From assembly GCA_964187785.1 (NCBI GenBank), contig OZ076409.1, positions 40,922,001 to 40,986,000 on the forward strand: a stretch of 64,000 bases of DNA, given 5' to 3'. This document shows, piece after piece, positions 4,700 to 38,969 of the stretch. Source of the DNA: Amphiscolops sp. MND2022 (Eukaryota). The first letter of the stretch is position 1. Each line of letters opens with the position of its first letter. The notes below the pieces were generated by a model that was given only the letters and a program-made list of their open reading frames with translations, searched no databases and was not told the origin of the DNA. The position numbers were made by a program, and so were the translations under genes.

Positions 4700-6600
4700 A
4701 TATTTTTCCCGCGGTGTGGGTTAGACCGATGTCAAAATGATTTAGTCTATCTAACCATCATGTTAGTCGTGCACTGAATTGTTTCTGGGTTTCTTTTTGG
4801 GAGCGGTTCAAGCTCTTGGTGATCAGAGAATGGTTGGATCCATTTACCGTATAGTTGAAATCGGAATCAATTCAGCCCTCATACAACAGCCAGTAGTTCC
4901 ATTTAGTCGATGGAAATTTTTTTTCTTCGTCGTTCAGGTATCAACTGGCAAATGCAATTCGATTCAACGCCCAGTTCCATTGTTTCTGCCTTAGTGCTAC
5001 CCCGAGACCGGTTTTGCATGCATCGGTACTTACGATGTTTTCTTTGATGCCGTTGTAATGGACGAGACAGGGTAATGCTGGTTCCTGTTTTGCTTTGTTG
5101 AAGGCCTTGTTGCGGTCTTCCGTCCAGCCCCATATTGTTCCTTTTTATAGTAGTCGTCTCATGTTGTCCGTTTGCTCAAGAGATTCGGTTTAAAGTTGGC
5201 AAGATAATGAATGGCGTAGGCAATGCAAAGGATTTTAATGTTTTTGGTGTTGCTTGGGGTTTCTAGTTTGTTTATTGCGTCTGTTTTTTCTTGGGTCTGA
5301 TTCTGTCTTGTGAGACTGTAAGTCCGAGCCATATTAATTGCTTCCGGTAGAATTTTGATTTCTTTTTGCTTGCTCTATATCCTTCGTTTCAAAGTTTAGT
5401 GAGTACCGGTTACAATTGTCTTCTTTTCCGTTCTTCTTTTTCCTTCGGGTCACGACAAGGATGTCGTCTAGCTGGTTAGTCTGGGGGACCGTAGAATCCT
5501 TTTAAGAAGAGGTAGTATCCGTTTATGTTTTAGCCTGTCACTGCAATGTTGCAGTGTTTGCTGGTGTCTGGTCCTAGTCTCATTTGTCCGTAGTAATAGT
5601 CGAGATATCTCACGGATATCGAAATTGGGTCGTGTTTTTTTTGGATGTTTCAGAGGAAATTTGGTTTAGCAGTTTTTCCATGTTTGGCATGTAAGGTCTC
5701 TTTTTCACACACCTTTCGTTGAGTTTTAAGGAGTTCAATGCAGTTTTCACAGTTTTGTTGTACCTACTACTGCTTTTGAAGTTCACAGTTTTCTTCATTA
5801 CTACTGGTGATACGATGATAATTTCTCCGATGGTTTCAAATCTTTCGAGGTGTCTGGATTATATTAATTGGTCATTTTTCACGAATAGTTGCAGTTGATA
5901 CGGTTTTGCTCTGGCCTTATGTTGGATTGCAAATCCTCAGCATCCTGGTTTTAATTGAATTTTTTTCGATGTGCTTGATTATGTGGGTAATTTCAAACAA
6001 TTTGATGAAACATGAGTGAATGGCTTTTGATCGGTTATTACTTGCGTTCAGCAGAACGATCGGATTAGTACTTTCGTTGATGGTATTTGGTAGTTGTTTT
6101 AGCCAGTTTACACATAGAAGTGGCGTGAAGTTGTTTCTTTGTGTGATAAATATAGGTAGTTTTGTGGTTTCGCCGTTGTATTTTATGTCTGCCGATACTT
6201 TTCCCAGGAACTTTTTTTCATTTTTGTTTAGATCTTGGTATCTTTTTCTTAGTGATTTGATATCTTCCGGTTTGTATAGTGTCGGGTTGTTAGGCATTAT
6301 TGTGACCAGAGAGCTGGCATCGATGGTTAAGTTCTGGTATACTCCGTTGACTTCCACTTTGATCCCGTAGCGGTCATTCTTGTCTGGAAGAATTCTATTA
6401 AATTGTGTTAGTGGTTGGATTTCTTCGGAATCGCTCTCTTCTCCATCGTAGGTTTCTTCAACATAGTTTCTGTTTTTCTTTTTGTGTTCTCGGTATTGCT
6501 GCAACATTCACTTGCGAAATGCCCTATTTTGTCATAGTTGTTATATTCAACCGGTTTCGTCAGGCATTTGTGTAGTGGTGTCCGTTTTTTTGTGCACAGA
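4700..6600 (-). pseudogene. Decayed gag-pol of the old Gypsy (Zn knuckle, protease, RT, RNase H remnants)
   Basis: Minus-strand fragments: KIGHFASEC (CCHC remnant), TIDASSLVTIMP...LLCVNWLKQL (protease), VKTALNSLKLNERCVKKRPYMPNMEKLL (RT N-terminal part), DACKTGLG near 5000-5030 (RNase H). Many stops and frameshifts; boundaries approximate. Confidence 0.8.
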
Positions 6601-6867
6601 AACCGCACAAAATTTACTTTTGTGTTGTTACGCCTTAGTTTGTATTTTTTGCCTTCGCAGTGCTCTTGCTTTTGTCGTGCTTGTATTTTTTGTATTGGTT
6701 CTTGTTTTAGCTCTTATTCTTTTACGAGTGCTGTGCACTTTGTTGACTGTTTGTGTCTTGTTTCGTAGCTGTCTTGGGTTACTAGTTCCATGGTTGTATT
6801 GAGGTTCAGCGTTTTTTCGCGGATAAGGTTTCCGGTCTTTTTTTACGGTAATGCTGGTGATAACTTT

Positions 6868-7595
6868 TGTAACGGCAAGCTCTGGTACAGCAATATCAAC
6901 CGACATGTTTGGAAATTTTGTCAAAAATTCGTACAAATTTGACGTGGCACTCAAACATGCTCAAGACGAAGTACCTGCCAGAAAAAGCACCCCAGAAAAG
7001 CAGAAATCGCCGCTCGCGACGAACAGGCACCGGAGACGACAAAAAGACGTCCCCAACGCATACAGAACACGGTATTGTGTCTATCTCTAGGAGATATCCA
7101 TTACTACAGTAAAGGAAACCAGTGTTCCAGATGTTCGCCTGAGTATCCCTGCGGTATCCTGTGTGGCAACTAGCGCTAGCGCTGGGAAGCTGAGGTCAAT
7201 TTTCATCAAATGACTGTGAACTCTTGATCTCTTGTTGTATTTTTCGATGTGGTAAATTAATATGCTCGAGAGCTGTTGTTTAACATCTGTTTATCCAATT
7301 TGGGGATTTTATCAGATTCTCCAATATTACGGTTCAACCTTCATCGATTTTCAGCCCGATTTTTAAAGGCTAGTTGAGCAGTGGTCTTGAGTCTTGCAAG
7401 ATGCCTGTTACTTTTAGCAGTTACAGACTAGGACCAGGCCAGAGAGTATCCTACAAGACGGTTCCCCCACCTTGGGACTGGCTCCTTCGGAGGGAAAATG
7501 AGCTAGAGCCGCGGAGATCTAGGTCCCAGATTATATTCGCTGTTCTAGTTCCTCCACTCTACGTTGCGGTTCAAGCGCCAGCGCTTATCGTTACA
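6868..7595 (+). repeat. 5' LTR (728 bp), subfamily A
   Basis: TGTAACG...CGTTACA, near-identical to 24911-25638. Confidence 0.97.
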
Positions 7596-7610
7596 TAGAA
7601 ACTCATTTTT

Positions 7611-7628
7611 TGGCGACCACAAAGGGAT
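7611..7628 (+). promoter_or_regulatory. Primer binding site, tRNA-Arg-like
   Basis: TGGCGACCACAAAGGGAT resembles the complement of a metazoan tRNA-Arg 3' end (...TCCCTTCGTGGTCG-CCA, from recall). The same motif is at 39211-39227 (-) and ~62788. Confidence 0.8.
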
Positions 7629-8806
7629 CGTCTTGGGAAGCTTTCCCTAGCGGTTTTTAAAAGATCTGGCCCCCTGGTGATCAGCGCCAAGCCCGTTTTC
7701 GACTCTGGACAGGAGAGAGAGAAGCAGAGTTTTACCTCTTTTTAGTCGTATTACGTCTTACTGGAACTGGGAGAGGCGTTGAACCAGAGAAAATGCCGAA
7801 GAAAACGTGTTTTCAGGTGCGAAAATGGTATTTTTGGGCATTTTAGAAGGAAATCGCTCTTTATGTGTGATGTGTTGTGTACCCATCAGCGGGTACTTTT
7901 TTGCAGGTGCAGAGGACCGTAGCACGTGGCTACGGGTGTCTAACAGGTTTTTTGAGCTATTTTCAGCCATTTTATGCCATGCAAGAGGGTAACGGATGGA
8001 TGGTTGACCATACTCCAGCGAGGCGAAGGAGGGGACAAATCTCGTGTTGCCTACTTCCTATTCCCATTTCTCGTGGAGACGTCCTAGAGGCATGGTTTTT
8101 GGTGGACAGCAAGTGCAACGACAGACGGTGCTAATGGTCCCACCCGCGTGTTTCTGTCTGGTCTAGATGTGGAGAAATAACGTGGTGAAGATGCACCCCC
8201 TGTGACCAGATGCGTCGCTCAGATGGAGTATGGTTGGCGAAAATTTTGAGAATACACCTCTTTCGATGGAGAATCGTTGGTGCAGGTCAGTGACGTTCTA
8301 CTATAAATGTAACGACACCGTACGAAGTGCTTTTCTGCGAAAAGATAGCACTTGGAGAAAAAACCATCATTTTTGCGTTTTTTTGGTGTTTTTCTTGGTT
8401 TCGAGCACTAGTGCTCAAAGAAGCCAGGAAAGTTTAGTGGAAAGTTTTGAAAAAACAGCTGCAAGGCTCGAGAAAGCCGGCACGAGGCACGAAAGGTGAA
8501 GTTGAAGCCTTTGATTGTGATAAAAGTGCCAATTTGATGCCGAAAAATGTGGAAAAAGTGGAAATTTGGCCAAAAAGGCACCCAAAATGTGAACGTACAC
8601 GAGTATGGAAGTGCAAAACGACAGTGTACGGCACTGCCCCAAGTGTAGTTGACCCTCAGGATACTAATTGCCACTTTTGTAGCGGACTCAGGCAGCCTGG
8701 GGCTGATACAGTGCGAAAAACTTGTGATTTTTGGCATTTTCGAGCAGGGAAAGTGCATTAACCGAAAACACCCAGAGCGAAGCTTATTCGAAGAGAGCGG
8801 GCTCGA

Positions 8807-9073
8807 GCGCTCTCATTTTCAATTTTAGCAGCAAAAACGACGCATCGTGGTGAAAACCGCGTGCAGAAATTCCTTTTCAGTGTTGAGAAAAGTCGAAAAA
8901 CCTTGAATTTTGGCCAGTTTCAGGAGTACCAGAGTGCATCATTAAAACCTCTGGGGCACTCAGTGTTTTCGAGACCTGGGAGCCCGCGCGCTCTCATTTT
9001 CTGTTTTTATAATAAAAATAACGCGTGGTGGTGAAAACCGCGTGTAAAAACTCCCATTCAGTGCTGAGAAAAG
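8807..9073 (+). repeat. Diverged direct repeat (~181-bp period) in the 5' leader
   Basis: gcgctctcatttt...gtggtgaaaaccgcgtg...ttcagtg(t/c)tgagaaaag occurs at ~8807 and ~8988. Confidence 0.7.
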
Positions 9074-10289
9074 GGGAAAAACGCACTGAATTTGATCAAT
9101 TTTCCACAAAACCGCACTGTCTCTGAGCTAGGGTCGGGTCATCGATTCCTGAACCCTAGCCAAAAAGTGGTTGGATTTTCGTAACCACCACAAAAATTAA
9201 CGTTAGTGCCGAAAATTTGGTGAGCGTATCGGTCACCAAAGTCGAGAAAAGCTCTCTGACGTTTCGACCTCAGAGAAGCGTAAAAGGACCAAAAAAATCC
9301 AAAACTGCAGGACTGTCAGTGCCTTACACCTAGTGGGCACCACCAATTGAGGGTTCATCCCAGTGCTACGGATAGTGGGGCAACACGTTGGTCCCATTTT
9401 GCCTGCCGTATCACTTTCTGAGGTGATCCTCTTGGTCAATTTGTGAAAAAAGTCGTCAAAAACAGTGTTTTTTCGTGTACAACGTACATAGTGGGTCGAA
9501 ACCTCAAATAAGCGCTCGCGCTTCAATTCGACTATATCAAGGGCATTGTAGGTGCCCACCGGCATAGACTACCAAGTTTGGTGCCGATTTGTGTGATACT
9601 TGTCGAGAAAATAGGAAAAACGCGGCGCCCAAAAAAGTGCGCAAAAAGGCAGTTTTTTCTTAATTTTTCCAAGTAACCCGGGCACCTTGACCGACGGGTG
9701 GGGCTATATTGCAGCCCACCATCGTAATTTGTGCTAGTTCTTACGTTGCTGCAGAGAATTTGAGCTTGCTAGCTCTTTCCAGTGGACCGCAATCTTGAAA
9801 AGACGTGAAAAACAGTGTATTTCGATACATCGTGGTACCACACGTCTGTACCTAGGTGAAACTGTGTTGAAGGAGCGCGTGTTCATTTTCGTAAACCTAC
9901 TTGTACCTAAGATCTGCTGGTCAATTTTGGGCTTGATACAGCGCTTCTAGCGCACACACGAGCCTCTTGAGTGTTGTCGTGCGAATTTTGAAAAATCCTA
10001 AAATTCTTTGAAATTCTTCCTGTGAGTGACTGAAGACTTTCTGCCCCAAACCAGGTTGATTTTCTGGCCCAGTGCGCGTGTGAGAAAACGCTGTGCAAAT
10101 TTGAACAGCCTACGAGCTCTAGAACGTGTTTCGAAAAGTCTAGGACATTGAATAACATCAAATTTCTTAAGTGCTCACCGGGACGACCAAGGGATCAGCC
10201 TCGGATTGAAGACCCTGGTACGTTCGGCGACCCAATTTGAGTCTTCCGAGTAATCGTGAGCGGTAACTCGATCGCTATTAATAAGCGCG

Positions 10290-12941
10290 TTGGCCACCGA
10301 ACTGATGGCGGTGCCCCATACAGGTTCACAATCGTGGGTCACGATAGATGGTTCGCGTTTTTCAGACGACATGTCTGACGAAGTCACTATCGAACAACAG
10401 CGAAAAGAGGAATTGGCCGATATGGTTCCTCCCTCAGAGAACTCCAGTGTTTCCGAAAATTCGCGTCGGACCGAGCAGTGGGTCGACGAAACCTGCCGCG
10501 ATAGAGCCAATGAAGTGGAAGAGGGCTGGCCCAATTCGAATGCAACCGATGAATTGGTGGCTGAGGAAGGGTGCTCGCGCGCACCCCCGGCTGGAGAGAC
10601 ACAACTCGGCTCGCAGACCGACATGGAGCAGGACCTCACTTATGTGGGAGGTATGAGTTACGCGAGACAGCGAGGACTCGGGACCACTCGAGGACCTACC
10701 CGGGTCTGTGCCTACGGAAAGCACAAGAGGGTGCGACCACCCATACTGCAGGTAGGCGAACCACGTCAGGAGGCATCCCGTGTTAGGAGTATGGCAGGTT
10801 CATTGGCCTCATCGCAACGGTCTTCGGTATACAAGGCAGCGCTATTGGATGCCCAAGCCGAAACCCAACGGGCTCTAGCAGGTCTGGCCAGCACTCGTGC
10901 TCAGTGCAATGAGCAACATCTTGCCATCGTGGAAAATATTAAAGTGATGCAGACGACGATGCGTGAGGGCCTGCAAGTCAGCGATCAATTGCGTACCGCG
11001 CAGAACGTGCAAAATGCTCGAGTGGACACATTGGGTCACCGGATGGGAGAGATGAATGACATGTTGATGGCTCGCGAATTGCGCGTGGAAACGCAGATCA
11101 ACGACTTAAGCAATCAGATGCGCACAGTGCTCAATGCCATTGATGTCATGAGGCGTGAGAGGTCTCTCCCGCGGCAGCCCAGTGCAAGAGGAGGCGTGCG
11201 GAATGGAGGTCCAGTCCGTATCTCGGAGCCGACGTGCCCGAGCCAGGTAGTGAAATCGGAACTGCCAAGCGCGTTGAAGCCTAGCACTTCCAGGCCGGCA
11301 GTGCCTGCGCCCCGGAAAGATGAAGGAGTAGCCGGAAGTTTGGTGATAGCCACGCCTGAGGCAGAGCGCAAGCCTGCACGAGTGCAGATGAGGGGACATC
11401 ACGACTCAGCAGAGTCATCGATGCCTTCTGCAGCCCAGAGCACTACTTGAGATCAAGGCGTGGATCCGATGTCAACCATCTATCTTGATTCTACGGTTGA
11501 AGTCGACTTATCCAACACCAAGGCAACCCTAGGTTCTCAAACCGAGGGAGCAACGTTTGCAACTGCCCCTATTTCGATGTCAGGACCAGACTCCTTATAC
11601 TTGACCGCAGACTTGTCAGCCGATCATGGACTGCCCTCGGGCACTCCCTGCGCTAGCAGCACTCGCAAGAAGGACGAAATCGCTGACCTGTCGATACTAG
11701 CCACTCTTGGTAGTCATGACAGGACGCGCGAGGGGGAAGCTAAGGTCGAAGAAGGAGAAGCCATATCCCCTGAGCAGCTGAGATTCACGGCCGCCATATC
11801 AAAGGCGATGTCAAAAGAGTTAGCGCCTTTACTCGCCGGCAGAGACTTGGCTCAGGCGAGACCTAATGTATATCGCGGTTCCAAAGACGGATCCATTGAT
11901 GGGTGGATCCTTATTATGCAGAGATACCTGAAGAGAACGCAAACCAAGGTCTCAGCCGAGGACCAGGCCTGGAGCATCATTGGTCACCTTGAAGGTGAAG
12001 CTCGCAACTACATCATTAACAAAGCAGAATCCGAACGTGACACCCCCGAGAAGGTGTTTGAATTGTCATCCAGCCGCTTTGGCGCTGGAGGAAATCGTAT
12101 GCAAGTACGACAAGCTTTCCAGAGCCGCATTCAACATGAGAAAGAAGACTGGATGCAGTATTTAGACGCTCTAGAGGGTCTTAGAAGTCAAGGATTCCCG
12201 CAAGAGACAATCACTACCAAGCGCTATGAAATCCTCCAGCGCTTCATGGAAGGCGTACGAGACCCAGCGCTGAGGCGGGAACTTGCTATAGTATATGCCT
12301 CGGAAGTCTTCCTGACCGAACCACCTACGGTGGAATCCCTTCGCTTCACCACCCGCCAATTGCAGCGCAATCGCCCCAAACCCAACCAATTCACTCAACC
12401 CTATGACCCCAGACTAGCAATGAGGTCTAGACCTCAACCCTTCGCGCCGCTACCCCCCAACAAAATGGTGTTACCACAAGGAGTAATGCCTCCCCCACCT
12501 GCGAGCAATGCCCCACCAAATCAGGCAGCAGCGCAGTCTGCGGCACGCCTACCCGTTGGCGCATGCTTCAACTGCGGTCAAGCTGGGCATTTTGCCCGGG
12601 ACTGTCCCACCCGCGATCAGGCTCGCAAACCAGTGGCAGCTCCCGAGCCAGAAGGCGTGAAAGTCACTGCTGAAGATGTAACTGATGGCGTGTTGGAGAA
12701 TTATCCAGGCATTCATCAGTGTGCGCACTGTGGAGTCTATGACCATGTGGATGTCCCCTGTGGTGAGCATTCTCAAGCTCCAAGGCCTAATGATGAATTG
12801 GCCTACAATCGATGGGCTGAGGTGGAATCCGCTGGTGTGGCCGCCCACACTGTACCCCTGGAGGATGATCGCGTGTTAATGCTGCACCCAGCGGAGCCTC
12901 CAGCGTTTCATGCGGAACAAAGCAGATTCAAACGTGCTTAG
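10290..12941 (+). CDS. gag: Gag: acidic and coiled-coil N-terminus, capsid, CCHC knuckle; one in-frame TGA at 11448-11450
   Basis: ORFs 10290-11450 and 11460-12941 share a frame. Capsid-like IDGWILIMQRYL...LEGEARNY, knuckle CFNCGQAGHFARDC, second knuckle-like CAHCGVYDHVDVPC. Confidence 0.9.
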
Positions 12942-15900
12942 AGCCCACCACGTTCGATCCGCAAGGGAGAACGTTGATCTCGATTCATCTGATGCTGGCA
13001 GCCGAGCAGGTGCGTAGACCAACGCTAACCTTGGCGAAACTCTGGGTTGAGCTATCTGTCCTCTATAACCGGATGGAGTTGCCCCGCCCAAAGCAGTGGT
13101 ACGTCCCTGGAGAGTCGGAGACCCTGACTACATACTCGCCAGTACCGGTTTGTGCAACGATGGACGGCGTGGACGTGAAGTTCGAGGCCTGTGTGGTGGT
13201 AGATGTATTCCCACCCGGCTTATGCTTGGGACCTCAAGAGCTGAAATGCTATAATATCAACCACCAAGAACCGACCGGGGAAGCGCGGATAGATGAGCGT
13301 GCGTCGCTTGTTGTCTCTTTTGTGGTGCCCCATGCGGCACCTATCCCACTGCGAGGCTTGGTGGATACTGGTTCCGGGGTGTCCATACTAACCTTCTCCG
13401 CCTTTAACCGGGTAGCTGCACGGACCGGTGCGGTCCTGAAACCCTATCAAATTGATTTGTACGCTGCCAACGGGAAGACAATAACGACTTTCGGGTTGGC
13501 TGAGCAGGTACGCTTCCAGTTGGGAGGGTATGAACTCGAAACCAATTTCGTCGTGGTAGATGACACAATGGGCGTGGAGGACTTTCTGTTGGGTCGAAAC
13601 TTCCTCCGTTCCTACCAAGTCCTGGTAGATCTAACCTCCATGAAGATAGTGGTGCGAGCACCAGTGAAGCCCGTCTGGCATCATGCACACACCCAGGTAG
13701 GTGATGCTTCGCTAACTACTCCCATTGCTCTGGACAGTGACCTGGTCCTACAGCCTTTCGAGCGTACAGTGGCAAAGGCTAAACTTGTCACCAACGCGCT
13801 TGAACCATCAATTTTCCAGACCGTGGCGCTTAACGCCTCGTTGTCTGATCCCTCATTGCAAAATACCATCTTTTTAGAGGACAGCGTGGCCACTGTCAGT
13901 GAGACAGGAACATTGTATGTGAGTCTGGTAAACCTCACCAGAAACCAGCAGCGTGTACGATGTGGTGCCCACCTGGGCACGGTAGTGCCTGTGTCTTTAG
14001 TATACCAGGCTGTGCCCCAAAAGCTGGATGCTACTGCAGAAACTGACCACAAAACTGAAGCCGACAACAGTCGAGCAAATTTTGTTTATAAAGTGTACAG
14101 TGAAATGAATCTATCCACTGCTTCTGAGTTAACTTCTTCATCTGAATTTGAGTTTTTGTCTTCGACGGATCCAAGTGAAGCGGGGCTTTCGGAGCGCGAG
14201 ATTCGCAAGCGCACCGATCCGGACCTATTGGCCCCGATCCCTGGGCCCGATTCTCAATTGCAAGAAGTTAAAAAACTCTGGGGCGCTAGTCCTTGGACAA
14301 CATTTAACGAGTTTGATGACCTATTCATGAAGCGTAAGGCGGATATTGGCCGCTGTACCATTGGTAAACACACTATAGAGGTAGAGCCTGGGGCTGTACC
14401 GCACCGTGAAGGTGCTCGCAGAATGTCCCCCGAAAAGGCTGAACGAGCCAACCAGGAGGTTCGGAGCCTACGGGCCTTAGGGATGATACAACCTTCACTG
14501 TCCCCTTGGGCAAGTGGTATCGTAATGGTAAAAAAGAAAAGCGGGGAGTTGCGTTTTTGCTGTGACTTCCGACCGCTGAATGAAGTAACCATTAAGGATG
14601 CCTACCCCCTGCCCCGCATTGACGAAAGCCTGGCGCGACTGGGCAATGCAAAGATCTACACTAGCATAGATCTTGCCTGGGCTTTCTGGCAGATTCCGTT
14701 GCGAAAAGCGGACCGCCACAAGACAGCTTTTGCCTGTGAGTTGGGACTCTTCGAATGGTGAAGAATGCCATTCGGCTTGTGCAATGCATTAGCCACCTTC
14801 CAGCGAGCAATAGCGCGAGCGCTACAAAAAATAGTCAATCGCAAAGGCAGCATGGACATGGCATACATCGACGACATAGTTATAGCAACGGAAACTGTGG
14901 AAGATCACATGGCGCGTCTGCGCGAGGTCTTTGAATGCCTCCGCGAGGCTGGCTTCAAGATGCGCGTAGCCAAATGCGACTTCATGAAACCAGAAATCAA
15001 ATATCTGGGACGCGTAGTCTCCGCAGAAGACGTCAAACCGGACCCGAAGGCTGTTGCCAAAATGCGCGACTGGGACATCCCTCGCAACAAGACAGAGATG
15101 CAAAGTTTTTTGGGATTCGCTAATTATTATCGTGAATTTATCCCATGGCATGCCAAGCTGGTTGCGCCCCTCCACGCCGTTACTGGACTGAATGCCACGT
15201 TTGCATGGGGCCCTGACCAGCAAAAGGCCTTCAACGAAATCAAGAAAGCATTGATCGAGGCGACTGCGCTCGCGCAGCCTGATTCTGAAGAAGTGTTTGT
15301 GCTGGACACCGATGCCAGCGCCGTTGCCATTTCCGGCATCCTACACCAGTGGCAAGGAGCTCCAGGAGAGCGACGCCTACGACCGATCATACGATCATAT
15401 ACGGCAGCAAGAAATTGACCACCACCAAAGCCAAATATGGGGCACCCAAGCTGGAAATGTTTGCAGCCTACTACTTCATCCTGAATTACCACAGCTACCT
15501 TTGCCCCCAAAAGTTCACCCTGAGAGTCGACAATCAAGCCCTATCCTGGTTGAAAACCTACTCCACGGACCAAGCATTGATTGGACGTTGGATCATGACG
15601 CTGGACAGGTATCACTTTCGTGTGGAACACAGACCGCGAACTCAACACCGCAATGCTGATGGCTTGAGCAAACGAACCAACGATTATCGATGCCGAGAAC
15701 AGCAGCTTGCGCAGCTGCCAGCTACCGGAGAGCGTTGGAATTTCCTCTCGGCCGAGGAATTCGACAACCTCCCCGTAGCCCCCTGGTTCGACCTGCAAGG
15801 TCGAATAATTCCAAATCATCCTGACCTACCACTGCATCTGCAGAACTTGGAGCCTAAGGCTCCTGACCAAGCACTCCGTGTGCTTCGCCGTGTGCAACAA

Positions 15901-17500
15901 GCGAACAAGCGAGAACGACAGGCAAAGGCGCTAGCCGCACCTCTACCGCCCAAGCCTCCACCCGTGCTGCAAAAGCACGAGGATTTCTACCCGGACTATC
16001 CTGAAGACTGGATAGACGTCACCACTGAGGCGAGCGAGGATTACCTGCTGCCAACACATGCAGTAAATGTCCCCTCTCGCACCATCTATTCTGTGGCAGG
16101 AACGAGTAACGCCATGCTACAGAACTCTCCTGGTGGCGTGCGCGAGTCGATCATGGCCCTCAAGGACATTGACACCGAGCTCCATGAACACACTCATACC
16201 GTACATGGGATCAAGGATTTGGTCCTAGCCCAAAACCGCGATGTCCATGTGCTAGCACTGAAGAAGCTCGTGCAGTGTGAATTCCTAGATAACGATGTGT
16301 TTCCCGAGAACGTGCGTGAGTTCGCACGTAACTATTTTCGCCAGAAAAAGGACCTCTTGTTCATAAACAAGAATGACGTCCTTTGCGTGCAATACTCCCC
16401 CACCCAACGCCCATTGCACGAACGTCCGTGCATGATCATAATGCCTCAGCTGTACCAGCACGAAATTCTGTTCCGTGCGCACGACGCAATGGGACACCAA
16501 GGTATCTCAAAAGTGGTAGCTCGAATTCAAGAGCGCCACACTTGGCCCGGCATACGGCGCAGTGTCGGTCGATACGTCGGCCAGTGCCTCACCTGCCAAC
16601 AAGTACGTGACAAGCCTGGTGACGTACGATTTCAACTGAAAAACATTCAGAGTGGCTACTTCAACGAGTTGGTCCAGTATGACCACTTAAAAATCTGCCC
16701 CTCTGATAATAACAACACCGGCATTTTGGTCATCATCGACCATTTCTCTAAATTTGCAGAGGCAGTCCCTTGTAGTCACCACGACTATGACGCAGTGACC
16801 ACCTCACGATTGCTGCTGCAGAAATGGTTTGCCCGCCACGGCACCCCCACTCGCATGCAATCAGACAATGCTCCAAACCTTACTGCTGAAGTCTCTAATG
16901 AATTCCTAAAGGCAGCTCACGTCACTAAAGTGACCTCCACTGCCGGACATCCACGAACTCAAGGTTTGGTGGAACGGCAAAACCGAACCTTCTTAACCCT
17001 GTTGCGAGTCTTTTGCTCGCGCCGCATGCGCGACTGGGACCAATGCTTAGATGAAGTGATCGATCGGTGCCTATAATTCTACCAGGCACGCCACTACAGG
17101 CTTCTCGCCCTACATGTTAACAAGGGGTGTTGAGAAAGCAATCCCCCTCACCTTTTTGTACCCTGAATTTGCGGCCAAGTCCTTTGATACGCATGAAGCA
17201 TACGTGGATCATGTGTTGGCTCGCCAACAAGAAATTCACGACTTGGTCCGGCGCAATACGCACCAGGCTCAATTACGCCAAAAATTGAAATATGATCGTG
17301 CTATCCGCACACGAGCTTACCAGCCGGGAGAGCTCGTCTGGGTTTTTTGCCGCTACGTGCCGCAAAAAGGCTCCCCCAAGCTGATGCGCGCCTGGCGTGG
17401 CCCGCACAAAGTAGTACAAGTCTTTCAAGAAGGACGTGTCTACGTGTTGGACACAGGCCAAAAGGTTCATTTTGAGCGCCTGAAACCTCATCACAGTGGG
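12911..17500 (+). CDS. pol: Pol (protease, dUTPase-like spacer, RT, RNase H, integrase), disrupted
   Basis: LVDTGSG and LLGRNFL (protease); SPWASGIV, RFCCDFRPLN, MPFGL, YIDD (RT); LDTDAS, VDNQAL, NADGLS (RNase H); HDAMGH/CLTC, IIDHFSK, SDN, VERQN (integrase); WRGPHKV...VHFERLK (GPY/F). Lesions: TGA at 14759-14761, 8-bp duplication CGATCATA near 15385-15400, 4-bp GATC duplication near 17060. Confidence 0.95.
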
Positions 17501-19615
17501 CCCCTTGAGCTCGCCACCGCGCAAGCGGACAGCGGCGAAATAGTGGTACTCATGGACCCTGACCCTGAACGTTCTATCGATGTGGTTGACGACAATAAGT
17601 CCCAGCCTTCATATAAAACTGAACAACTACTTTCAGAAGTAAGCACCTTCGCGCAAGCACCATTGGATGGATACCCGGTTGCGCACAAAGTTGCGTGCTG
17701 GAGGTTCCCGCATGCACTACCAGCAGTTCGACTACTCGACCTCGGGCACTGACGACGAGTTATCCGAAATCATGTTACCGGTACCTCCTGATCCCGTTGA
17801 TGCTGATCGTAGGGAACCCGAAGTCCCCCAACCCCCTTCAGACCAATCAATATCACCTACCCATCGTCTACCTCAACTATTCTCAGACCATCACCACAAA
17901 TATCTTCTCCCGAAAAACAGCCCTCATTATTGGGAACATCGGCCCCACTACTGACAAATCCATCGCTGACGAGTTTCCTCAATAACTATCCCATTTGGCC
18001 GGCCGCTCCTTCCCTCCCTCTGAAGTCCGCCACCGAGGATGACGACGCTCAGTCCAATGTGCCTACCCTTCCCACGACATTGCCCGGAGCGGGGACCGCT
18101 CCTTCTCTCAAAAGGGGTAGGAGGAGACCACCCAAAACGCGAAAACTGCTGGTCAGAGCGAAGGCAAGAACGAGAAAGAAGGAAACAACAACAACAATGC
18201 CGTCGGAAACAGCAATACCGACCGAGGCTTCTGAGGTCCCCCGATACCAGCTGAGAAGCAGGCGGCAACCACGCTACAAATGCGGGACCTGTGGGCTGCG
18301 AGACTGTGTTTGCTTGCTAGCCGTCAATGAGAACCGGAGTGTTCCCACTGGAGCCCGGGGAGTTCCTCCGGAGCGGGGAGCAAATCTAGTACATCGCCTT
18401 ACGGTGAGAGCTGAGAAGACTTATTCCTCCCTGGAACGACACGGAGACCATCCCGTGGATACTATTCTGGAGAAGTTATCATCACCTGGAGTAGCGAAAG
18501 CTCCGTGTCCTCGATTCAAGGAGTGGACTAGCGACGGAAAAGGGTTAGAGTTTACCCTCGCAACGGTGATGCCCCCAGTACCCAGCAATATTGCGTTTGG
18601 ACCCTTCAACTTCGAGCGGGAACCTGTGCAAATGGTCCGATGCATCACCGCTGATCTTCTCTGTGACAAATACGGAATTCACGTGGATCCGGGCGGAGTA
18701 TACAGCCCAGCGCTGCACTGGTGGTTGCTGGTTACTGCTCCACGAGTGGAGGCAATAGTGGAACCACTGCACCTGCTGTCCTGCTTGGAAGGTCTGAGGA
18801 CCCTCACTACCGCGGACTTGATACTTTGCTTCCACGTTATAGACTGGTATCGTGGCAAAGTGAAATTCGCGTGGTGGTTGGAACTAATCATCACTTGTTT
18901 CACCAATTATCCTCGCATTAGATTGCTGGATGAGTGGACTCATACTTTTGAGATTCCACTTCCCTCAAAAGCCGCTTTGAGCACCCTAGACGCATGGGTC
19001 AGGGCGAGCAGTGATAATCGAGCGATGCCACGATCGGTGTGGCAAGACCTGGCTGCAATCCAGGGGCGTACGCCCCGCGTGTGCTTACCTGCCGACAATG
19101 GGCCGGGGAGAGAGATTATCTACCCGGGAATTCTGCATCCAGCCCCAACAGAGCACCTCTCACACGATGTGACTGATTTTCTTCAAGTAGAAGGTGATAT
19201 GGTGTTAGCGTGTCCCGCTGACCTAGAGACCAACTCAGCCGCCCTACGGTACGTGCTACGAGAATGCGGCAAGGAGAATGTGTTCTCCCTACGTCCCAAG
19301 GTGGGGGAGATTCTCACCATTCCCCCTGATATCAACCCAAACCCCAATCAGAGTATTCATTTACTGATAATCAGAGCAAACCAGCGTGCGCCGCTGCTTA
19401 CCGACGACTACCTGCGTTGTATGACGCACTAGATACAGCGCTTGATAGAGAAAGGATCCACGAGGGTCCACCTACCTATACTGGATCCAGAGCGACCCAC
19501 CCTCTCATTGGTAAACCTGTACCATACCCTAACGAATTTGCTGGAGGGCACTGGCATTCACGTGGTGCTGCATAACCGCGTGTATGTGTCCATTCTGAGC
19601 ATAGGGCCGGAGTAG
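17500..19615 (+). CDS. Post-integrase extension: Pro-rich/basic linker, Cys cluster, two putative TARG1/Poa1p-like macrodomains
   Basis: Overlapping ORFs 17114-17752, 17667-17954 and 17930-19432. After the TAG at 19430-19432 the frame stays open for 60 more codons to 19615. Macrodomain call is from a by-eye alignment to TARG1/OARD1. Confidence 0.7.
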
Positions 19616-19901
19616 CCCGCCAAAACTTTTTTCTGTTGCCCCCTATTTAATTTATCCACCCCGATAATTGTCATGTCTGGGAAGAAGTCTTGAACAATCC
19701 CATGGAATGATTACCTTGTAACGTAGCGTTAAATAACTCCTATCTTTATGTTCTAGTTAGTTAGTTGAACTACAATTTAAACTTGTTGCGGTTCCCTTAT
19801 GGAGCCATCTTTGTACCATTGTAATTGGATGATGAGCCTTAAGCTCTCCCCACAATGCACCTAGTAAGCCTAACGGTAATCCTTTTTAGACCTATGATAT
19901 A

Positions 19902-22900
19902 ATGGCTTATTATCCCAACAACACGGTGCCTATTCCCACGACGGGACCTCACACCAATAGGTCTCAAGAATTGCCTGCGCGAGCGCAGAGGACTAATCAA
20001 GTCCAATATGTAGAAGAACGACTGAGGAACGGCCTCTCACCGTTAGCGGTAGCGGGCGTGGCCGCCCTGCTCACTCAACTAGACACGATGCAGACGCTGC
20101 CGGGTGTATCTGTGTCTCTGGTGACGGAAGTAGCCGGTTACCGTCGCACGCTAACCTGCCAAAACAATGCGTGGGATGGCCACGATTTGACGCATCAGTT
20201 CTTGGATGAACGCTCTACCACAATGCTCGGGCCCAGCCAGGGCACGAGATTCGAGCAAGAAGCCTCCCTGTGTATGGTGCCTGCCAGCGTTGCAACGATG
20301 CCACCTCCTCAGATGGTCGCATTGCCCCCACCAGCACCAAAACCAGTACCAATGACGCCAACTTATTCCGGTTCACCTGCCTTTGGGACCTCATATCGAG
20401 CGCCACACATGGTACTGCAAACCACTACTAGTGCACCAGTCTCTGATCGGGAGCCCTCGGGGTTCCGGTTGCCACCCATACCTAACCCAGAGCTGACTGG
20501 AAGGAGTACCAGCGAACAGGCCGTAATTGTGGCCCTGCAAGCAGTGGCCAACTATCCGAACTCCTCCGATTTTGTTTGTGCCGTAGAGCAGAGAATCCCT
20601 GGACTAGCCACTTATCTGCAAGCTGCTGTTCAGCCCTCGGGCTGTGACCCTCCTGCTCCCTTAGTCGAGACGGCATCTATGGATGTGGAAATTGCTGCCG
20701 GACCAAGCAACAGCGCAAGCGCTGCTACTGGCACACGAGAAGAAGCCGGGAGAAAGCGACTAACTGAAGAAACTGCCTCAGTCACCCCAGCTGGCTCAGT
20801 AACCGAGAGCCCGACTAGTCGTCCCCCTCCCGACAAACGCGCTGATGTACCTCGACCCCAGCTGAAAAGTGTAGTCATCCCTAGGCCTCCATACCGAGTG
20901 GGTCATCTAGGCCGAGGCGCGCTTCAGATGTCTCTAGCGGACGCAATCGAGCAGTATGGAGATCCGGATGCAGGCTCGGAAGTGAGCTCTGTGCCCTCGG
21001 GCACGAATCCAATAGATATGTCCCTGGAGATACCTGAGACGGTGGAGGAGGCCCGTCCCCCAGCCTTCCTCCCTCCATCTGATGACGTATCCGGTTCAGT
21101 AGTCACCAATGATAGCAAACGCATTTGGATGGCGGCTGAGCATCTCTACCCCAGTCAATGCGCTATAAAGAAAAGGACCCCTCCCACTGAGACGGAGCAA
21201 AAGGAAATTAATCGAACTACGATATCGGCGCAGGTCACGCGTTCGCTGCGCCCCCGGGACAGAGATATGTCGGAGCAGGCCTGGGAACAGCGTGCTCGAG
21301 AGCAGCTGCCTACGACAACTAACGATTACATGGCACCCCTGCAACATAACATCACCGAGCAATTCCCCGCACGGTATGTGTTGCGAGAAGGTGAGACATG
21401 GGAAGCGAACGCCCGCTACGCCCGCAACTTGAGATCTCTGAAACCACTATTGAAAGCAGCTCTGCAGCGCGCGCGCTACTGCATGGCGGTTGATTCTACC
21501 TGCCGGAGTGACCTGCCTATTGACAACTTGATGCCTGACGTGCTGGTACTGACTATGCCCCTGTCTCGCTTCGCTGAGATCGCTGAGATGGTTGGAGCCA
21601 TATACGATCCAAACTTAAGAGGATCACAGAAGGAACCACCCCCACAGCGCGTGATCTTTGCCAATCTTCTGGATCACATGGCTTGCGAAGGGTTGCTGCG
21701 TGACCTGGACGCTATAATGTCCGATGTCCGACGACCTGGAGACATTGCAGCCCTGGTAAATGAGGTGGTCGGTGCAATGGAACGTGCCGCAGGGATCCTT
21801 CGGGGTCGTCTGGGAGCGCTCGCGCTCTTTGTATCCCCACCAGGATTTATGTACTGGCCACGTAGTCTGCAGCAGTTTGTCTACATTCTGCTGGAGGTAT
21901 GCAAGGCGCGCAGAGTCGAATTCGCCATCTGTGCACCAAACTTGCGCGTGGACCGAGAGGACCTGCGCCCAGATACCTTATCGTATCCAGCCTTCTTTGC
22001 CGCCGTATCTAGAGCACTCGTGGCTATAGAACGCTCGGGAAACGCCCAGCTAACCATTGACGACGCTATCCTCTATGATCATGGAATGCGGATGGGCAGA
22101 ATGGCCTTTGACCTTGACGGCAACCGCATCGCCCGAGAGTCAAATGTGACCGAACGAGAGGCTGTTCGTCGGTACAATTGGCTAGTGCGAAAGGACAAAG
22201 AAATCCCAGTGCGTGCAGAGTTAGCCGAACTGACAAAACAAATCGGTGCATGGCCTGCAGCGCGCACCGTTGAGAGAACAATCCCTCAGATCCACTTCGC
22301 CTCAGGAATCGAGCCCGTGAAGCTGCATGTAGGACTGCAGTGCATCGTGGCGATTGAAGCAACAAATCTGAAGGCAGAGGTTGATGCCGCAGCTACCACT
22401 TACGCCTATTGGTACCAAACTAGGTTTGCCACCAGGACTCTAGCAGAAGTAGCTCGAGAGCTCAATTGTCCATTGGAAGCCTTCTGTACCAGTCTTGGTC
22501 TGGGATGGAACCTTGAAGTGCTAACTTCCGAGTTTTCGCTGACCCCTACGCAAACGGACAAGCTACTAGAAACAATTGGAGAGGCAACTGTCGGAGAAAT
22601 GCTAGCGCTCGCGCTAGCGATGGGCCCAACGAAGTTCGTAGCCGGACCACTAGCCCTATTAGTCGACATCGTGATTGCCTGCGACCTCACCGTGTTCTAC
22701 AGCTACTTGGTCCTGGCACAAGGACAACTACGCAGCCTGACCCGCTGGGGACATTTAATGACCTCCAAAGACCAACAAGATGATTCCGCCTAACTGGAGC
22801 GCATGCGTGCGTCGATCCAACACTGGCTATATTCCACCCTGGTGTTCGCCTCCGGTCTATTCGTGGGCGTGGACCAATCCCAACCACTACACAACTCAGA

Positions 22901-24209
22901 CCAGCAGATCCCACGGGAAACGGCAGGATTCCCCTTGCCGCAGCAGATTGCTGATCTAACCCTGGCTGAGGTAGAGGATTTCGTGGCATCCATGGCTCCT
23001 GTCTTGGCCCCCATCTTTGGCGCAGTGGGCGTGTGCCGATACCCCACAAAACTGTTAGCAACAGCAGTCCAAGTGCACATGGTCTCCTTTAGCACCTATC
23101 TGCGAGGCCGTCCCTCACTGGCATATCCAAGGGTAATACATGCCGTGCTGAGTGGTGAAGTGCCGCATGGGTACACGACCGTGAAATCCGAAAGAGAGTT
23201 GGAGGAGAACCTGATGGGTTTGTTGCGCGCGCGCACCAGGAAAGCATGTTCTCTGCCTCGAGAACATGGGCCTGTGAATTGGTACTCCGCACCTCTCAGT
23301 TTGGAAGGAGTCCCCTTCAGATTCCCCTGGAGTCAAGAGTTCATAAGAAAGGCGATTCGCGCCAGCACTAGTGCTGGTCCACCTGTGGACCCTTTGTACT
23401 GCTTTAAATGCATCGCCTTCCCGAACCGCTATTGGAAGGAGCCGTTAGGTTGGCCAAGGGCGAAACCCGTTGGACGCGCCCCGGAGATTTTCAACCGTCA
23501 AATCCAGCACTTGGAATCAGCCCAGATCCCAGGATGGATTGAAGGCGCTGCTCAGATCAGGCAAAGGAATCTCCAATCCCGCGTTACCCCATTCCCCAGG
23601 AAGTCGGCATGGAAGCCTACGGGAAAGATGACTATGTCTGGAGATATGTCCATCGTCCAGCATGATGAGATCAATTCCGTGTTGGGCTCGACAGAACGAG
23701 CAAGATGGGAAGAGTACTGTCTGGAGTTGGAGATTGCTAGCTTCCCTAAGTGGAAGAGAGCTTGCGAGCTCTGGAGCCAAACTGGGTGGATCTCACGCCG
23801 AGTCGCACTAGCAGTAGAAGGTAGAGCAGAAATAGCGAGACAACAGGCGTTCGCGCCTACCATGCTCGCACCAACGATGGCGATGTCTTTGGATCGGCCC
23901 ATCTCTCAACCGATCACCATTAACCTTCCAACCCACCACTTGGAGCCAGAACCATTTGGCCCGTCTTCGTCGCGAACTAGCCCTCAGTCCTTGCAGCAGC
24001 AGTCCGGAGAGCACGCCGCCGAGTTGACTCCCAATGCAGCACTAGTGCAGCCCATTGCCGAGTTGTCGCTCCCCGAAGATCTGTCGGACTCTGAAACGGT
24101 TGCCACAGAAGTCTCTCCCCGACGTCGAGCGTCAGTGTCGACTGATAACCCAGAACAGAACCCAGATGATGCCACTAAAGAGCAGACCCGACGCAGTTCG
24201 GCTCAATAA
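19902..24209 (+). CDS. Large accessory ORF3 (~1435 codons, one in-frame TAA at 22791-22793) with a putative SGNH/GDSL-like domain
   Basis: ORFs 19902-22793 and 22803-24209 are in one frame with only three sense codons between them, inside the LTRs at the env position. SGNH-like blocks at ~21470-22030. Confidence 0.8.
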
Positions 24210-24892
24210 ACCCAGCCGCTGATGGGAGCGTTCGCGCTCCCTATACCCTCGCAAACTGCCAACAAACAGTGCCTTAAAACTTCTCATCCAGGACGGTGCT
24301 ACAGTACAAAGTGCAATTTTTGTTCATAGTTATGGTTATATAATTAGTGTACCATTAGTGTTGCACTGGGTGTACGGCCAATAGAGTACGCCTGCCCCAG
24401 TGGCTTGAATTACCAAGCAGAAAGAAGAAAAACTATTATTCAGAAAAACTGCTATTTTTGTTGCGCACCGTTCGCGGTGTTTTTGAGTTGTCACAATCAA
24501 AAGAAGTCTTATCCCTCTTGATTGCATTTTCTTTCTAGTCTAGTATTCTTCATCAATTTGGTTGTTCACCGTAAGAGCCCGCAAGCTCTAAAAAAAGTTT
24601 TTAATCGCCTAAAGTGAATTGAAGACTACAAGTCTCAAATGGTAAGAAAAAGAAATTTTAGCCGACTTTGGTCGCAAAAACGTTTTTAGGTGCTAAAACC
24701 TCGTTCGTGTTTTGTACAAACAGCTAGGCAGTAAGCTCTTTTTTTCGTTAAAAAAACCGCAAAAACTGACCAAAATTGTTGCCGAAAAACAAGGACTCGT
24801 CCTTGTTCCCCGATGTGTGGATGATGGTTCCCAGCAGTCACTGTGATGCAGTTTCCAGACGAGCCAGACGCCGCTTGCCAGGGACGACAAGC

Positions 24893-24910
24893 CAGGAACC
24901 TGGGGAGTGA
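24893..24910 (+). promoter_or_regulatory. PPT-like tract
   Basis: CAGGAACCTGGGGAGTGA directly before the 3' LTR. The relative at 35260-35275 (-) has CCCGGGGAGGA. Confidence 0.7.
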
Positions 24911-25638
24911 TGTAACGGCAAGCTCTGGTACAGCAATATCAACCGACATGTTTGGAAATTTTGTCAAAAATTCGTTCAAATTTGACGTGGCACTCAAACA
25001 TGCGCAAGACGAAGTACCTGCCAGAAAAAGCACCCCAGAAAAGCAGAAATCGCCGCTCGCGACGAACAGGCACCGGAGACGACAAAAAGACGTCCCCAAC
25101 GCATACAGAACACGGTATTGTGTCTATCTCTAGGAGATATCCATTACTACAGTAAAGGAAACCAGTGTTCCAGATGTTCGCCTGAGTATCCCTGCGGTAT
25201 CCTGTGTGGCAACTAGCGCTAGCGCTGGGAAGCTGAGGTCAATTTTCATCAAATGACTCTGAACTCTTGATCTCTTGTTGTATTTTTCGATGTGGTAAAT
25301 TAATATGCTCGAGAGCTGTTGTTTAACATCTGTTTGTCCAATTTGGCGATTTTATCAGATTTTCCAATATTACGGTTCAACCTTCATCGATTTTCAGCCC
25401 GATTTTTAAAGGCTAGTTGAGCAGTGGTCTTGAGTCTTGCAAGATGCCTGTTACTTTTAGCAGTTACAGACTAGGACCAGGCCAGAGAGTATCCTACAAG
25501 ACGGTTCGCCCACCTTGGGACTGGCTCCTTCGGAGGGAAAATGAGCTAGAGCCGCGGAGATCTAGGTCCCAGATTATATTCGCTGTTCTAGTTCCTCCAC
25601 TCTACGTTGCGGTTCAAGCGCCAGCGCTTATCGTTACA
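24911..25638 (+). repeat. 3' LTR (728 bp), subfamily A
   Basis: Near-identical to 6868-7595. Confidence 0.97.
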
Positions 25639-25735
25639 TTTGATGTGAGTAGGTCTTGTTATATGATGTCTTTGAATTCGCAGTTTTGATCGAGGGATGC
25701 CAATTTTCGCCAGTGTTCTAGCGGCGTTTCGTTTT

Positions 25736-26147
25736 TTTTTACCCAGAAGAATTATCGACGACTGTGCAACGTTTTTCATTTTGGCATGTAGTAGCCTTTG
25801 AATTGTTGTTATTTGCCGCTCACATAAATGGGGGAGGAAAATCATGATCTGTGATGCGTTTTTTTTTACAAATTCTGCCAAAACTCCACTTTATCTCCAC
25901 TCCATGGAGTGAAGTGCACGTCCCTTAGTTACTTGACTATTTTTAGTAATTTAAGTTCACTAGCGATAATTACAACTGAGTTACATCAATTTTGATGGCT
26001 CAGTCAGGTTGTATGTCCTGGGTTCGAACCCGTGCTGGTTCTTGAATTTTTTGTTTCCCAGTCAGTAGGTTCGACCCTCTCCTTCCTCATACTTTTTTGC
26101 AAAAAGCGTGTCGCGGAAAATATCCCGGTGCTTAGCAGGCGTCTTGT
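25736..26147 (-). repeat. Dispersed non-autonomous repeat (HINE-like or tRNA-derived), copy 1
   Basis: Terminal (a)caagacgcc..ctaagcacc, internal aaaatcatgatctgtgatgc and GGTTCGA B-box-like motifs. Related copies at ~29280-29650 and ~31340-31752. Interrupts the old gag. Confidence 0.65.
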
Positions 26148-38610: not shown

Positions 38611-38969
38611 GTAACCAAATCGATATTTGAGCTATTAGGGTGTTATGGCTAGCTCGCTATATATTTTCAGAAAACAATCGGAATACCCAGTGGGTATTTT
38701 TCTCAGTTCTTACTAATGGGAGTACGCCTGGGAATAGGCTTTTAAAGCCATAAAAACAAAAAGGGAGATTGTAACCCAGTCGATTCGTAGTGATCCACCA
38801 GTGGGTCAAGAGGGTGTTGCCGTGATGGACGTCACTCCGTCGTCACAGCTAGTGGAGGCGCTCACACCACGTCCCTGCAGTCCCAATACATTACAACTAA
38901 GCTGAAATGAGACTAGAAAACCCTTTAAAACAGAATCCGGTTAAGCCGGATGGTTAATCTCGGTACAGA

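Follow-up and report, generated by a model that had tools for sequence, protein, structure and literature searches.

What is an element that runs to almost 19 kb and still encodes protein for some 6.4 kb beyond its integrase, and does it stand alone or represent a lineage? The question is raised by positions 6868-25638 of a 64,000-nucleotide stretch of Amphiscolops sp. MND2022 DNA (GenBank assembly GCA_964187785.1, contig OZ076409.1, forward strand 40,922,001-40,986,000), hereafter called the window. A preliminary reading made from the letters of the window alone (the sequence-only reading) had seen here a giant Gypsy element with tandem macrodomains, an SGNH-like third open reading frame (ORF), a doubled protease, target-site duplications (TSDs) of 3 bp and a displaced primer binding site (PBS), which together might define an undescribed lineage. 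Our results indicate that the element is almost certainly one decayed member of a large lineage of Ty3/Gypsy (Metaviridae-type) elements that was active recently, and we are highly confident that the 3-bp TSD, the displaced PBS, the ORF layout and the accessory domains hold lineage-wide. The best explanation overall, to which we assign a probability of roughly 0.6, is the usual intracellular Ty3/Gypsy cycle with departures in priming, integration, the polyprotein and a second ORF (ORF2).

The element is an 18,771-bp retrotransposon of Ty3/Gypsy type. Its two long terminal repeats (LTRs; 728 bp, TG…CA) differ by 7 mismatches and 0 indels (99% identity; Kimura two-parameter distance 0.0097) and enclose about 13.7 kb of coding span, about 6.4 kb of it 3′ of the integrase C-terminus, in agreement with the near-identical LTRs and ~14 kb of coding sequence noted at the outset. 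The copy was also thought to be recent but mutated, and it is: ORF1 carries about five frameshifts (near 12905, 15340-15390, 17062, 17645 and 17890) and three stops (11448, 14759 and 19430), and ORF2 carries one stop. Pfam finds the zinc knuckle, protease (PR), reverse transcriptase (RT), RNase H (RH) and integrase (IN) in the Gypsy order PR-RT-RH-IN, and no significant match 3′ of the integrase. Two LTRs, a PBS, a polypurine tract (PPT) and a gag with capsid and nucleocapsid, all features of Metaviridae, are present. When the RT-RH of a natural copy is searched by sequence against the PDB, Ty3 RT ranks first (E 6e-65, followed by 5e-45 for the next entry and 5e-35 or weaker for retroviral entries), an affinity expressed as a ranking of PDB matches.

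A pattern consisting of the LTR end, 14-16 nt and the PBS has at least 2,990 matches in the genome, versus 0 for a reversed control. With about 3,000 such junctions the lineage is a major genome component, which standard pipelines could mis-annotate. A macrodomain 2 query gave 3,139 first-look candidates, 150 of which were scored and are all 95-100% identical. Protein searches resolve six families: A, which includes the window copy, A2, C, B, D and E. Compared with family A, RT-RH is 93% identical in A2, 91% in C, 86% in B and about 73-80% (partial lengths) in D and E, while ORF2 identity falls through A2, C, B and D from about 82 to 52, 42 and 29%. In uninterrupted copies gag, pol and both macrodomains form one ORF of 3,128-3,129 aa, the Gag-Pol ORF measuring about 3,000-3,200 aa across the lineage; LTRs are 720-735 bp long and end in TG…CA in all families. 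Every trait proposed to mark a lineage recurs in families whose RT-RH differs by up to ~27%.

Beyond this genome, two clusters of ENA proteins (3,068 and 2,541 members) represent a sister lineage whose RT-RH is 54-57% identical; it was not found in the Amphiscolops genome under study, where the best matches to it reach 32-34%. Its protein P0365 (3,179 aa) has the protease-like lobe and one C-terminal macrodomain. A FastTree phylogeny of 33 RT-RH sequences, with three vertebrate proteins as outgroups rather than reference clades and with one D sequence (D_L120) dropped as too short, places the families of this genome together (0.997) and joins them next to the sister lineage (0.989); the vertebrate proteins, at 38-43% identity, fall apart from both. 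Named proteins among the 120 RT-RH matches listed are only 37-42% identical. The 12 loci recovered by a metagenome scan are distant (25-43% identity), and by that measure none belongs to this lineage.

The TSDs were surveyed in 35 insertions, both ends being found in 33; five further groups (three A2, two C), with an end that ran over a locus border, was masked or was truncated, were excluded. As the sequence-only reading had it, the duplication is 3 bp: it is exact in 29 of 33, against a chance agreement estimated from base composition at ~2% per site. Three of the remaining four differ at one of the 3 bases and one is a tandem LTR junction; agreement extends to 4 bp in a single case (poly-A). 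The 4-6-bp TSD typical of Ty3/Gypsy elements, a trait outside the ICTV definition, is thus not what these insertions have. The flanks show a weak, symmetric preference, A-N-N[NNN]N-N-T, with A at −6 in 20/33 and T at +6 in 23/33, as is expected of a concerted staggered cut. In excerpts of a 2025 paper written from Repbase (Kojima; PMC12440569), 3-bp TSDs together with CG…CG ends are the signature of a new superfamily, Troyka, other or most LTR elements having 4-6 bp. The 3-bp stagger of the present lineage looks convergent with that of Troyka. A Gypsy lineage with TG…CA ends and 3-bp TSDs shows that stagger length can evolve separately from CG ends, and the way in which integrases determine the stagger can be studied by natural comparison.

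The PBS was likewise correctly called displaced: it starts 15 nt past the LTR in the window copy and 15-16 nt past it across the lineage, the offset pattern being that of the at least 2,990 junctions. Over 18 nt it is complementary to the 3′ end of tRNA-Arg(TCG) plus CCA (18/18 in most copies), and tRNA-Arg(TCG) genes with the complementary 3′ end are present in the genome, mostly in a tandem array. By this complementarity, tRNA-Arg(TCG) is the predicted primer tRNA of the lineage. The array begins at ~57,537,000 of G000:C9 (L088-L090) with a period of ~173 bp, and 273 pattern matches occur genome-wide. Families D and E (L114, L120) have a variant PBS, TGGCGCCCCAC, at 524 of the 2,990 junctions, for which no exactly matching tRNA gene was found in the genome. 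The spacer between LTR and PBS varies in sequence among families, its length and a terminal T run being constant. For 11 of 18 loci, the probabilities from RNA folding, as we read them, put the spacer head in a pairing with U5 sequence that lies well upstream of the LTR end; folding and a permutation test, which favours covariation, suggest that this pairing is probably real. Either the 3′ half of the PBS or the tRNA T-arm can be a pairing partner for a U5 motif that is conserved 39-56 nt before the LTR end, which we treat as a lead only.

Within ORF1, the segment directly 5′ of the protease is where the protease had been called doubled. Its resemblance to the protease is weak but detectable (hhalign with deep alignments, E 0.003 over the C-terminal 49 columns, 0/30 shuffles reaching the score; E 0.32 with shallow profiles), the lobe is conserved in the sister lineage, and it has no Pfam match and no PDB match by sequence. 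A D-T/S-G motif is absent from all 20 aligned rows, so the doubling stands only as a probable pseudo-protease beside the protease. The region at 13690-13990 has no Pfam match in family A; its counterpart in the sister protein P0346 matches PF04797 (E 0.026), and it is probably, on this weak similarity, a degenerate dUTPase-like beta domain. The WRGPH motif near 17393 is GPY/F-like, and the RGRP motifs of the linker are AT-hook-like.

The accessory domains escape Pfam and PDB searches by sequence, and the ESM Atlas gives only a 0.83 Macro lead. AlphaFold with a 19-sequence alignment, followed by Foldseek as the sequence-only reading had proposed, resolves macrodomain 2 (macro 2), whose model matches human TARG1 (Foldseek E 5.5e-7; Z 14.4, rmsd 2.8 over 137 aligned residues) and DarG (Z 12.9). 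A sister macrodomain matches TARG1 by sequence (E 9e-6) and aligns unambiguously to macro 2 of the lineage. Macrodomain 1 (macro 1), shorter by ~23 residues, is related to macro 2 by profile comparison (hhalign with deeper alignments: probability 70%, E 4e-5 over 99 columns, 0/40 column shuffles reaching the score; E 0.023 with shallow profiles). Given this profile homology, the tandem is best described as two predicted macrodomains, the fold of macro 2 being confirmed by its model and that of macro 1 not. Lys84 and Asp125 are the catalytic residues of TARG1. At the K84 position macro 2 has Arg and at G123 it has Glu, each in 23 of 26 rows of the lineage (the other 3 being unparsed); P, S or T takes the place of D125, and both glycine-rich loops are replaced. 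The macrodomains are therefore likely, on sequence grounds, to be non-catalytic. The G123E mutant of TARG1 loses ADP-ribose binding and catalysis and keeps RNA binding (excerpts of PMC5928194).

ORF3 of the sequence-only reading (19890-22793) and the next frame (22794-24209) prove to be one ORF of 1,434-1,439 codons, stop to stop, in other copies; what had been called an SGNH-like ORF3 is the first two thirds of ORF2. A pattern for the ORF2 stop of the window copy matched that copy only, with no sign of a shared defective template. The protein comprises a small N-terminal domain, a P/S/T/Q-rich region, an SGNH fold, a helical domain, a basic domain and a low-complexity tail. A profile search gave 606 relatives, and within the best 150 of them identity goes as low as 26%. 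Of ten that were looked up, nine are nameless ENA proteins and one is the fragment P0167 (MEO1519123.1), annotated in a Bacteroidota metagenome-assembled genome on an 816-bp contig and probably animal DNA contamination.

A model of the ORF2 core (841 residues, 127 sequences, mean predicted local distance difference test (pLDDT) 69) bears out the SGNH fold at about residues 523-712: SGNH/GDSL entries dominate the structure match list, led by PAF acetylhydrolase (Z 10.7, rmsd 3.5, 181 aligned), with the Oskar OSK domain at Z 7.7, and Foldseek found nothing at E ≤0.001 in PDB or BFVD. Block-I Ser is present in 29/31 rows, block III reads N-x-x-D-H in place of GxND, and at block V, where DxxH is not seen, Arg stands in 39/48 rows and His in 1/48. 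The helical domain that follows is well modelled and has no assignable structural match and no usable ESM Atlas match. In a deleted copy of the sister lineage, P0320, a canonical SGNH domain (GDS, GTND, DGIH; PF13472 E 9e-7) precedes a degenerate one; degenerate sister domains are homologous to that of ORF2 (profile E 0.016 for P0320, 4e-6 for P0340). In A, A2 and D, and with less clarity in B, the ORF2 ATG is preceded by a splice-acceptor-like motif, and on this motif ORF2 is probably expressed from spliced RNA. A hydropathy scan of four families found no N-terminal hydrophobic leader and no strong hydrophobic segment in any (best 19-residue Kyte-Doolittle value 1.6-1.8), and ORF2 has no conserved internal furin-like site and few Cys. 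An identity as an errantivirus or other env-bearing Gypsy was tried and rejected, the signal peptide, furin site and transmembrane anchor of those elements all being absent from ORF2 in the four families scanned. In the same genome, an unrelated Gypsy family (L091-L093) has a canonical SGNH domain (GDS, GTND, DGIH) directly after its integrase.

The accessory domains are under strong purifying selection, the approximate dN/dS being ~0.03-0.06. Between natural copies of A and A2 (pairwise NG86), dN/dS is 0.044 for macro 1, 0.038 for macro 2, 0.052 for SGNH, 0.063 for the helical domain, 0.14 for the disordered region, 0.032 for protease lobe 1 and 0.025 for RT-RH; dS lies at 1.0-2.5 or has reached saturation, as it has in most comparisons with B and C, and the within-family pair is too close to inform. 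The ORF2 frame and length are kept at 29-82% identity across families, and 16 of 32 matches in family B have no stop over ~1,456 codons. In family E, by contrast with A2 and B, whose copies with 99-100% identical LTRs keep ORF2, five of five copies (~14.8 kb, LTRs 100% identical, ORF1 ~2,999 aa, both macrodomains) have no ORF2; only 1.3 kb separates ORF1 from the 3′ LTR, and one copy tested shows no ORF2 trace. Since forms with and without ORF2 have both been recently mobile, ORF2 is useful but not needed in cis. The subfamily dN/dS comparison that the sequence-only reading had proposed gives 0.03-0.14, which is not that of neutral sequence, and the absence of ORF2 from family E makes the accessory module non-obligatory. 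Sister families differ in whether they have ORF2 and in whether they have one macrodomain or two, a natural gain-and-loss series for the roles of accessory genes in retrotransposons, and the element may unite three conserved pseudo-enzymes.

Taken together, these results can be read as one cycle. Host tRNA-Arg(UCG) binds the PBS 15-16 nt past the LTR end, and pairing of spacer head and U5 would probably keep the LTR end in a hairpin. Given that minus-strand DNA starts at the PBS and that integrated copies end at CA, 15-16 nt would have to be trimmed from the U5 end of the cDNA, most simply by integrase 3′ processing; such unusually long end trimming is checkable on cDNA ends. Integration, as the flanks show, makes a cut staggered by 3 bp and weakly prefers a symmetric site. 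The two TARG1-derived macrodomains would end the integrase at the position of the chromodomain in chromoviruses, where the pocket-less tandem would most likely serve as a nucleic-acid or chromatin tether, and the DTG-less lobe 5′ of the protease is probably a folding or regulatory partner. ORF2, at the env position, probably translated from spliced RNA and lacking a signal peptide or membrane anchor, would with its disordered regions, His-less SGNH and helical domain most likely be an intracellular, non-enzymatic ribonucleoprotein scaffold or anti-silencing helper acting in trans. These specific roles (tether, scaffold or anti-silencing, and the like) are tentative, and we put them somewhat below even odds.

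Several points weigh against this explanation. Macro 1 has pLDDT <50 in its model, and the residues of macro 2 were mapped onto TARG1 in two steps of sequence alignment, with a sister protein as the go-between. The similarity of lobe 1 is limited to those 49 C-terminal columns, with a best shuffle of 21.5 against a real score of 23.0. In block III of the SGNH domain Asn is found in 39/39 rows, Asp in 39/39 and His in 35/39, which with the block-I Ser could be a rewired active site. The fixed-register permutation test of spacer head versus U5 window (mean pairing 3.88 vs 3.41±0.14, a score reached by 5/10,000 permutations with 20 loci and 20/10,000 with 13 distinct spacer heads) used a register picked after viewing the data and statistics that ignore relatedness, and a register-free duplex test does not favour cognate spacer-U5 pairs, the own spacer being best in 4/18. 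The family-E copies were picked for long ORF1 and are not a random sample, and the dS values above keep the selection estimates approximate.

The most serious question about function is whether the accessory domains have remodelled sites and work as active enzymes, the macrodomains erasing or reading host ADP-ribosylation as a counter-defence and SGNH using Ser with the block-III Asp and His as a rewired triad. The invariant N-x-x-D-H and Ser, accessory dN/dS as low as in core genes, Lys at the K84 position in 2/6 sister-lineage rows and macro domains reported in fish endogenous retroviruses (ERVs; excerpts of PMC4977317) would fit; the lost glycine-rich loops and D125 equivalent of macro 2 and its E at G123 do not, and the canonical SGNH beside the degenerate one in P0320 suggests another job for the degenerate copy. 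We regard active enzymes as unlikely. That ORF2 replaces env, binding lipid through the SGNH pocket and helical domain to move particles between cells, is more doubtful still: its env position, the splice-acceptor-like site, its loss in a sub-lineage as happens to env, and the membrane targeting proposed for transposon esterases (excerpts of PMC5408684) have to be set against the missing signal peptide, strong transmembrane segment and furin-like site and the few Cys. Family E and the broken window copy are what one would expect if the extra ORFs were neutral captured fragments, an idea rendered scarcely credible by dN/dS of 0.03-0.14 at dS >1, by the conserved ORF2 frame and length and by the stop-free half of family B.

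As for identity, the usual Ty3/Gypsy cycle with its departures could belong to a lineage whose TSD and architecture Repbase, GyDB or Dfam already catalogues, in which case the annotation given here would be all that is new. Databases of transposable elements contain many unpublished families, the copy number here is very high and the assemblies with the lineage are public; yet the Repbase-based account of 2025 gives other or most LTR elements 4-6-bp TSDs (excerpts of PMC12440569), the named proteins among the 120 listed RT-RH matches are distant, and literature searches gave no description, so that we think this rather improbable. Membership in Troyka (Kuafuorterviruses) shares the 3-bp TSD but is contradicted by TG…CA rather than CG…CG ends, LTRs of 720-735 rather than 100-400 bp, a CX2CX4HX4C rather than CX2CX8-10HX4C knuckle, the GPY/F-like motif and an internal part of 17 kb rather than ≤7.7 kb (excerpts of PMC12440569), and is very improbable. 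A bolder composite goes further than our preferred explanation: a second, independent 3-bp-stagger LTR lineage inside Ty3/Gypsy with TG…CA ends, whose integrase trims a 15-16-nt tail and is steered by an enzyme-dead macrodomain tandem as a new kind of targeting module, with a trans-acting, Oskar-like pseudo-SGNH scaffold or anti-silencing protein borrowed by "cheater" families, the clade occurring in at least two animal genomes. As a whole this is possible but doubtful; if the second 3-bp-stagger lineage were true, LTR finders requiring TSDs ≥4 bp would miss the clade.

Features of the element at positions 6865-25641 of the window
Feature	Position	Strand	Evidence
5′ TSD copy, TTT	6865..6867	.	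LTR comparison and insertion survey
5′ LTR, 728 bp, TG…CA	6868..7595	+	LTR comparison
Conserved U5 motif, GTTCCTCC type, then bases predicted to pair with spacer head	7548..7561	+	Inferred RNA structure
LTR-PBS spacer, 15 nt, T run at its end	7596..7610	+	Copy comparison
PBS, complementary to 3′ end of host tRNA-Arg(TCG) + CCA, 17/18 bases here	7611..7628	+	
5′ leader, non-coding, ~2.6 kb	7629..10259	+	Frame scan
ORF1, Gag-Pol-macro-macro, single frame in uninterrupted copies, interrupted here	10260..19615	+	
Gag capsid (PNMA-like, weak, PF14893 E 0.017) and CX2CX4HX4C zinc knuckle (PF00098 E 3.7e-8)	11892..12608	+	
Protease-like lobe without DTG, probable pseudo-protease, directly 5′ of protease	12900..13261	+	hhalign E 0.003
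Aspartic protease with DTG	13300..13660	+	PF13975 E 1.9e-6
Probable degenerate dUTPase-like beta domain	13690..13990	+	Weak, via sister protein P0346
Reverse transcriptase and RNase H	14528..15612	+	Pfam; PDB Ty3 RT match
Integrase: H2C2, rve core, GPY/F-like motif (WRGPH) ~17393	16444..17490	+	Pfam, sequence
Low-complexity linker, RGRP motifs (most families) and conserved CGTCG-x-R-x-C-x-C motif	17800..18320	+	
Macrodomain 1, shortened paralogue of macrodomain 2	18581..18990	+	Profile comparison
Macrodomain 2, TARG1/DarG-like fold, altered ADP-ribose pocket	19145..19612	+	Fold match E 5.5e-7, Z 14.4
Splice-acceptor-like motif (CTAAC, pyrimidine run, AG), 13 nt 5′ of ORF2 ATG	19866..19889	+	Inferred from sequence
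ORF2, ~1,435 aa, one stop at 22791-22793 here	19902..24209	+	
SGNH-fold domain, block-I Ser present, block-V His -> Arg	21468..22037	+	Fold model and alignment
All-helical domain, confident model, no assignable match	22329..22853	+	
Polypurine tract GGGGAG and 3-nt gap to 3′ LTR	24902..24910	+	
3′ LTR	24911..25638	+	
3′ TSD copy, TTT	25639..25641	.	

The window holds further members of the lineage. At 34532-39974 (minus) the D/E branch has a non-autonomous derivative of 5.4 kb that lacks a long ORF; its LTRs are 99% identical, its TSD is 3 bp, and its 16-nt spacer is of a type that ranks with the commonest listed genome-wide. Older LTR fragments at 2121-2361 and 34103-34173 are its kin. The 5′ end of another element of the lineage, 83-85% identical to A and A2 and with the same displaced PBS, occupies 62028-64000. 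A decayed frame with a protease-like stretch at 5917-6507 (minus) lies directly left of the insertion, and an older retrotransposon may enclose the element. Several inverted-repeat arms (82-93%) at 25805-26135 and 29291-29645 resemble DNA transposon ends, and 51794-51939 is a perfect palindrome with 73-bp arms and no spacer. Elsewhere in the genome, junctions every ~14 kb at G000:C1:34,043,000-34,099,400 constitute a tandem array of elements, and at L021/L022 an LTR, spacer and partial PBS are fused directly to a PPT remnant and second LTR, probably through deletion at microhomology.

How, then, does the lineage compare with known systems? In the literature searched we found no published Gypsy LTR retrotransposon with a macrodomain, nor a retrotransposon with macro and SGNH domains; the macro-domain, gypsy and integrase literature, in the passages available, mentions only macro domains in fish ERVs. 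The term "3 bp TSD" occurs, among the matches listed, only in a plant satellite study, searches for "3-bp target site" with gypsy and for end-processing gave unrelated matches only, and in a survey from 2026 that covers Gypsy elements with env (PMC13524379), passages make no mention of macro, SGNH or TSD. Hence the proposal of an undescribed lineage agrees with the literature searched, Repbase, GyDB, Dfam and subscription journals being outside its scope. Each part has precedent elsewhere, but we found none there for all of them combined with TG…CA ends and 3-bp TSDs.

Human TARG1/OARD1 and DarG share the fold of macro 2, which differs in its ~14% identity, in the replacement of the catalytic Lys/Asp and glycine loops and in its fusion in tandem to an integrase. 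The OSK domain of Oskar, which shares the SGNH fold, is enzyme-dead and RNA-binding and lies beside disordered regions. It is offered as an analogy only, being neither the best structural match nor a claimed homologue. The plant Ogre is a giant LTR element with extra coding capacity. Planarian Burro elements resemble the lineage in large size and extra coding capacity and exceed 30 kb (excerpts of PMC11410931), so that its size is not exceptional. Bdelloid Vesta LTR elements likewise place an SGNH-fold ORF after pol, where env would be, patchily among families; in excerpts of PMC5408684 the catalytic residues of their GDSL ORF3 are intact, the amplicons are ~1.3 kb and there is no clear departure from neutrality within a genome, whereas the domain in the present lineage is His-less, strongly conserved and part of a 1,430-aa protein. 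Troyka and the Kuafuorterviruses share the 3-bp TSD and a mostly single Gag-Pol ORF, but in excerpts of PMC12440569 and PMC11673190 they have CG…CG ends, short LTRs, a CX2CX8-10HX4C knuckle, no GPY/F and no accessory ORF. With Metaviridae (Ty3/Gypsy) at large, the lineage shares its LTRs, an 18-nt tRNA PBS, a PPT, gag-pol in the order PR-RT-RH-IN and an internal region within the range "3 to >15 kb" (PMC7879559); it departs from them in its 3-bp TSD, a PBS 15-16 nt off the LTR, a pseudo-protease lobe, tandem macrodomains on the integrase and a 1,430-aa non-env ORF at the env position.

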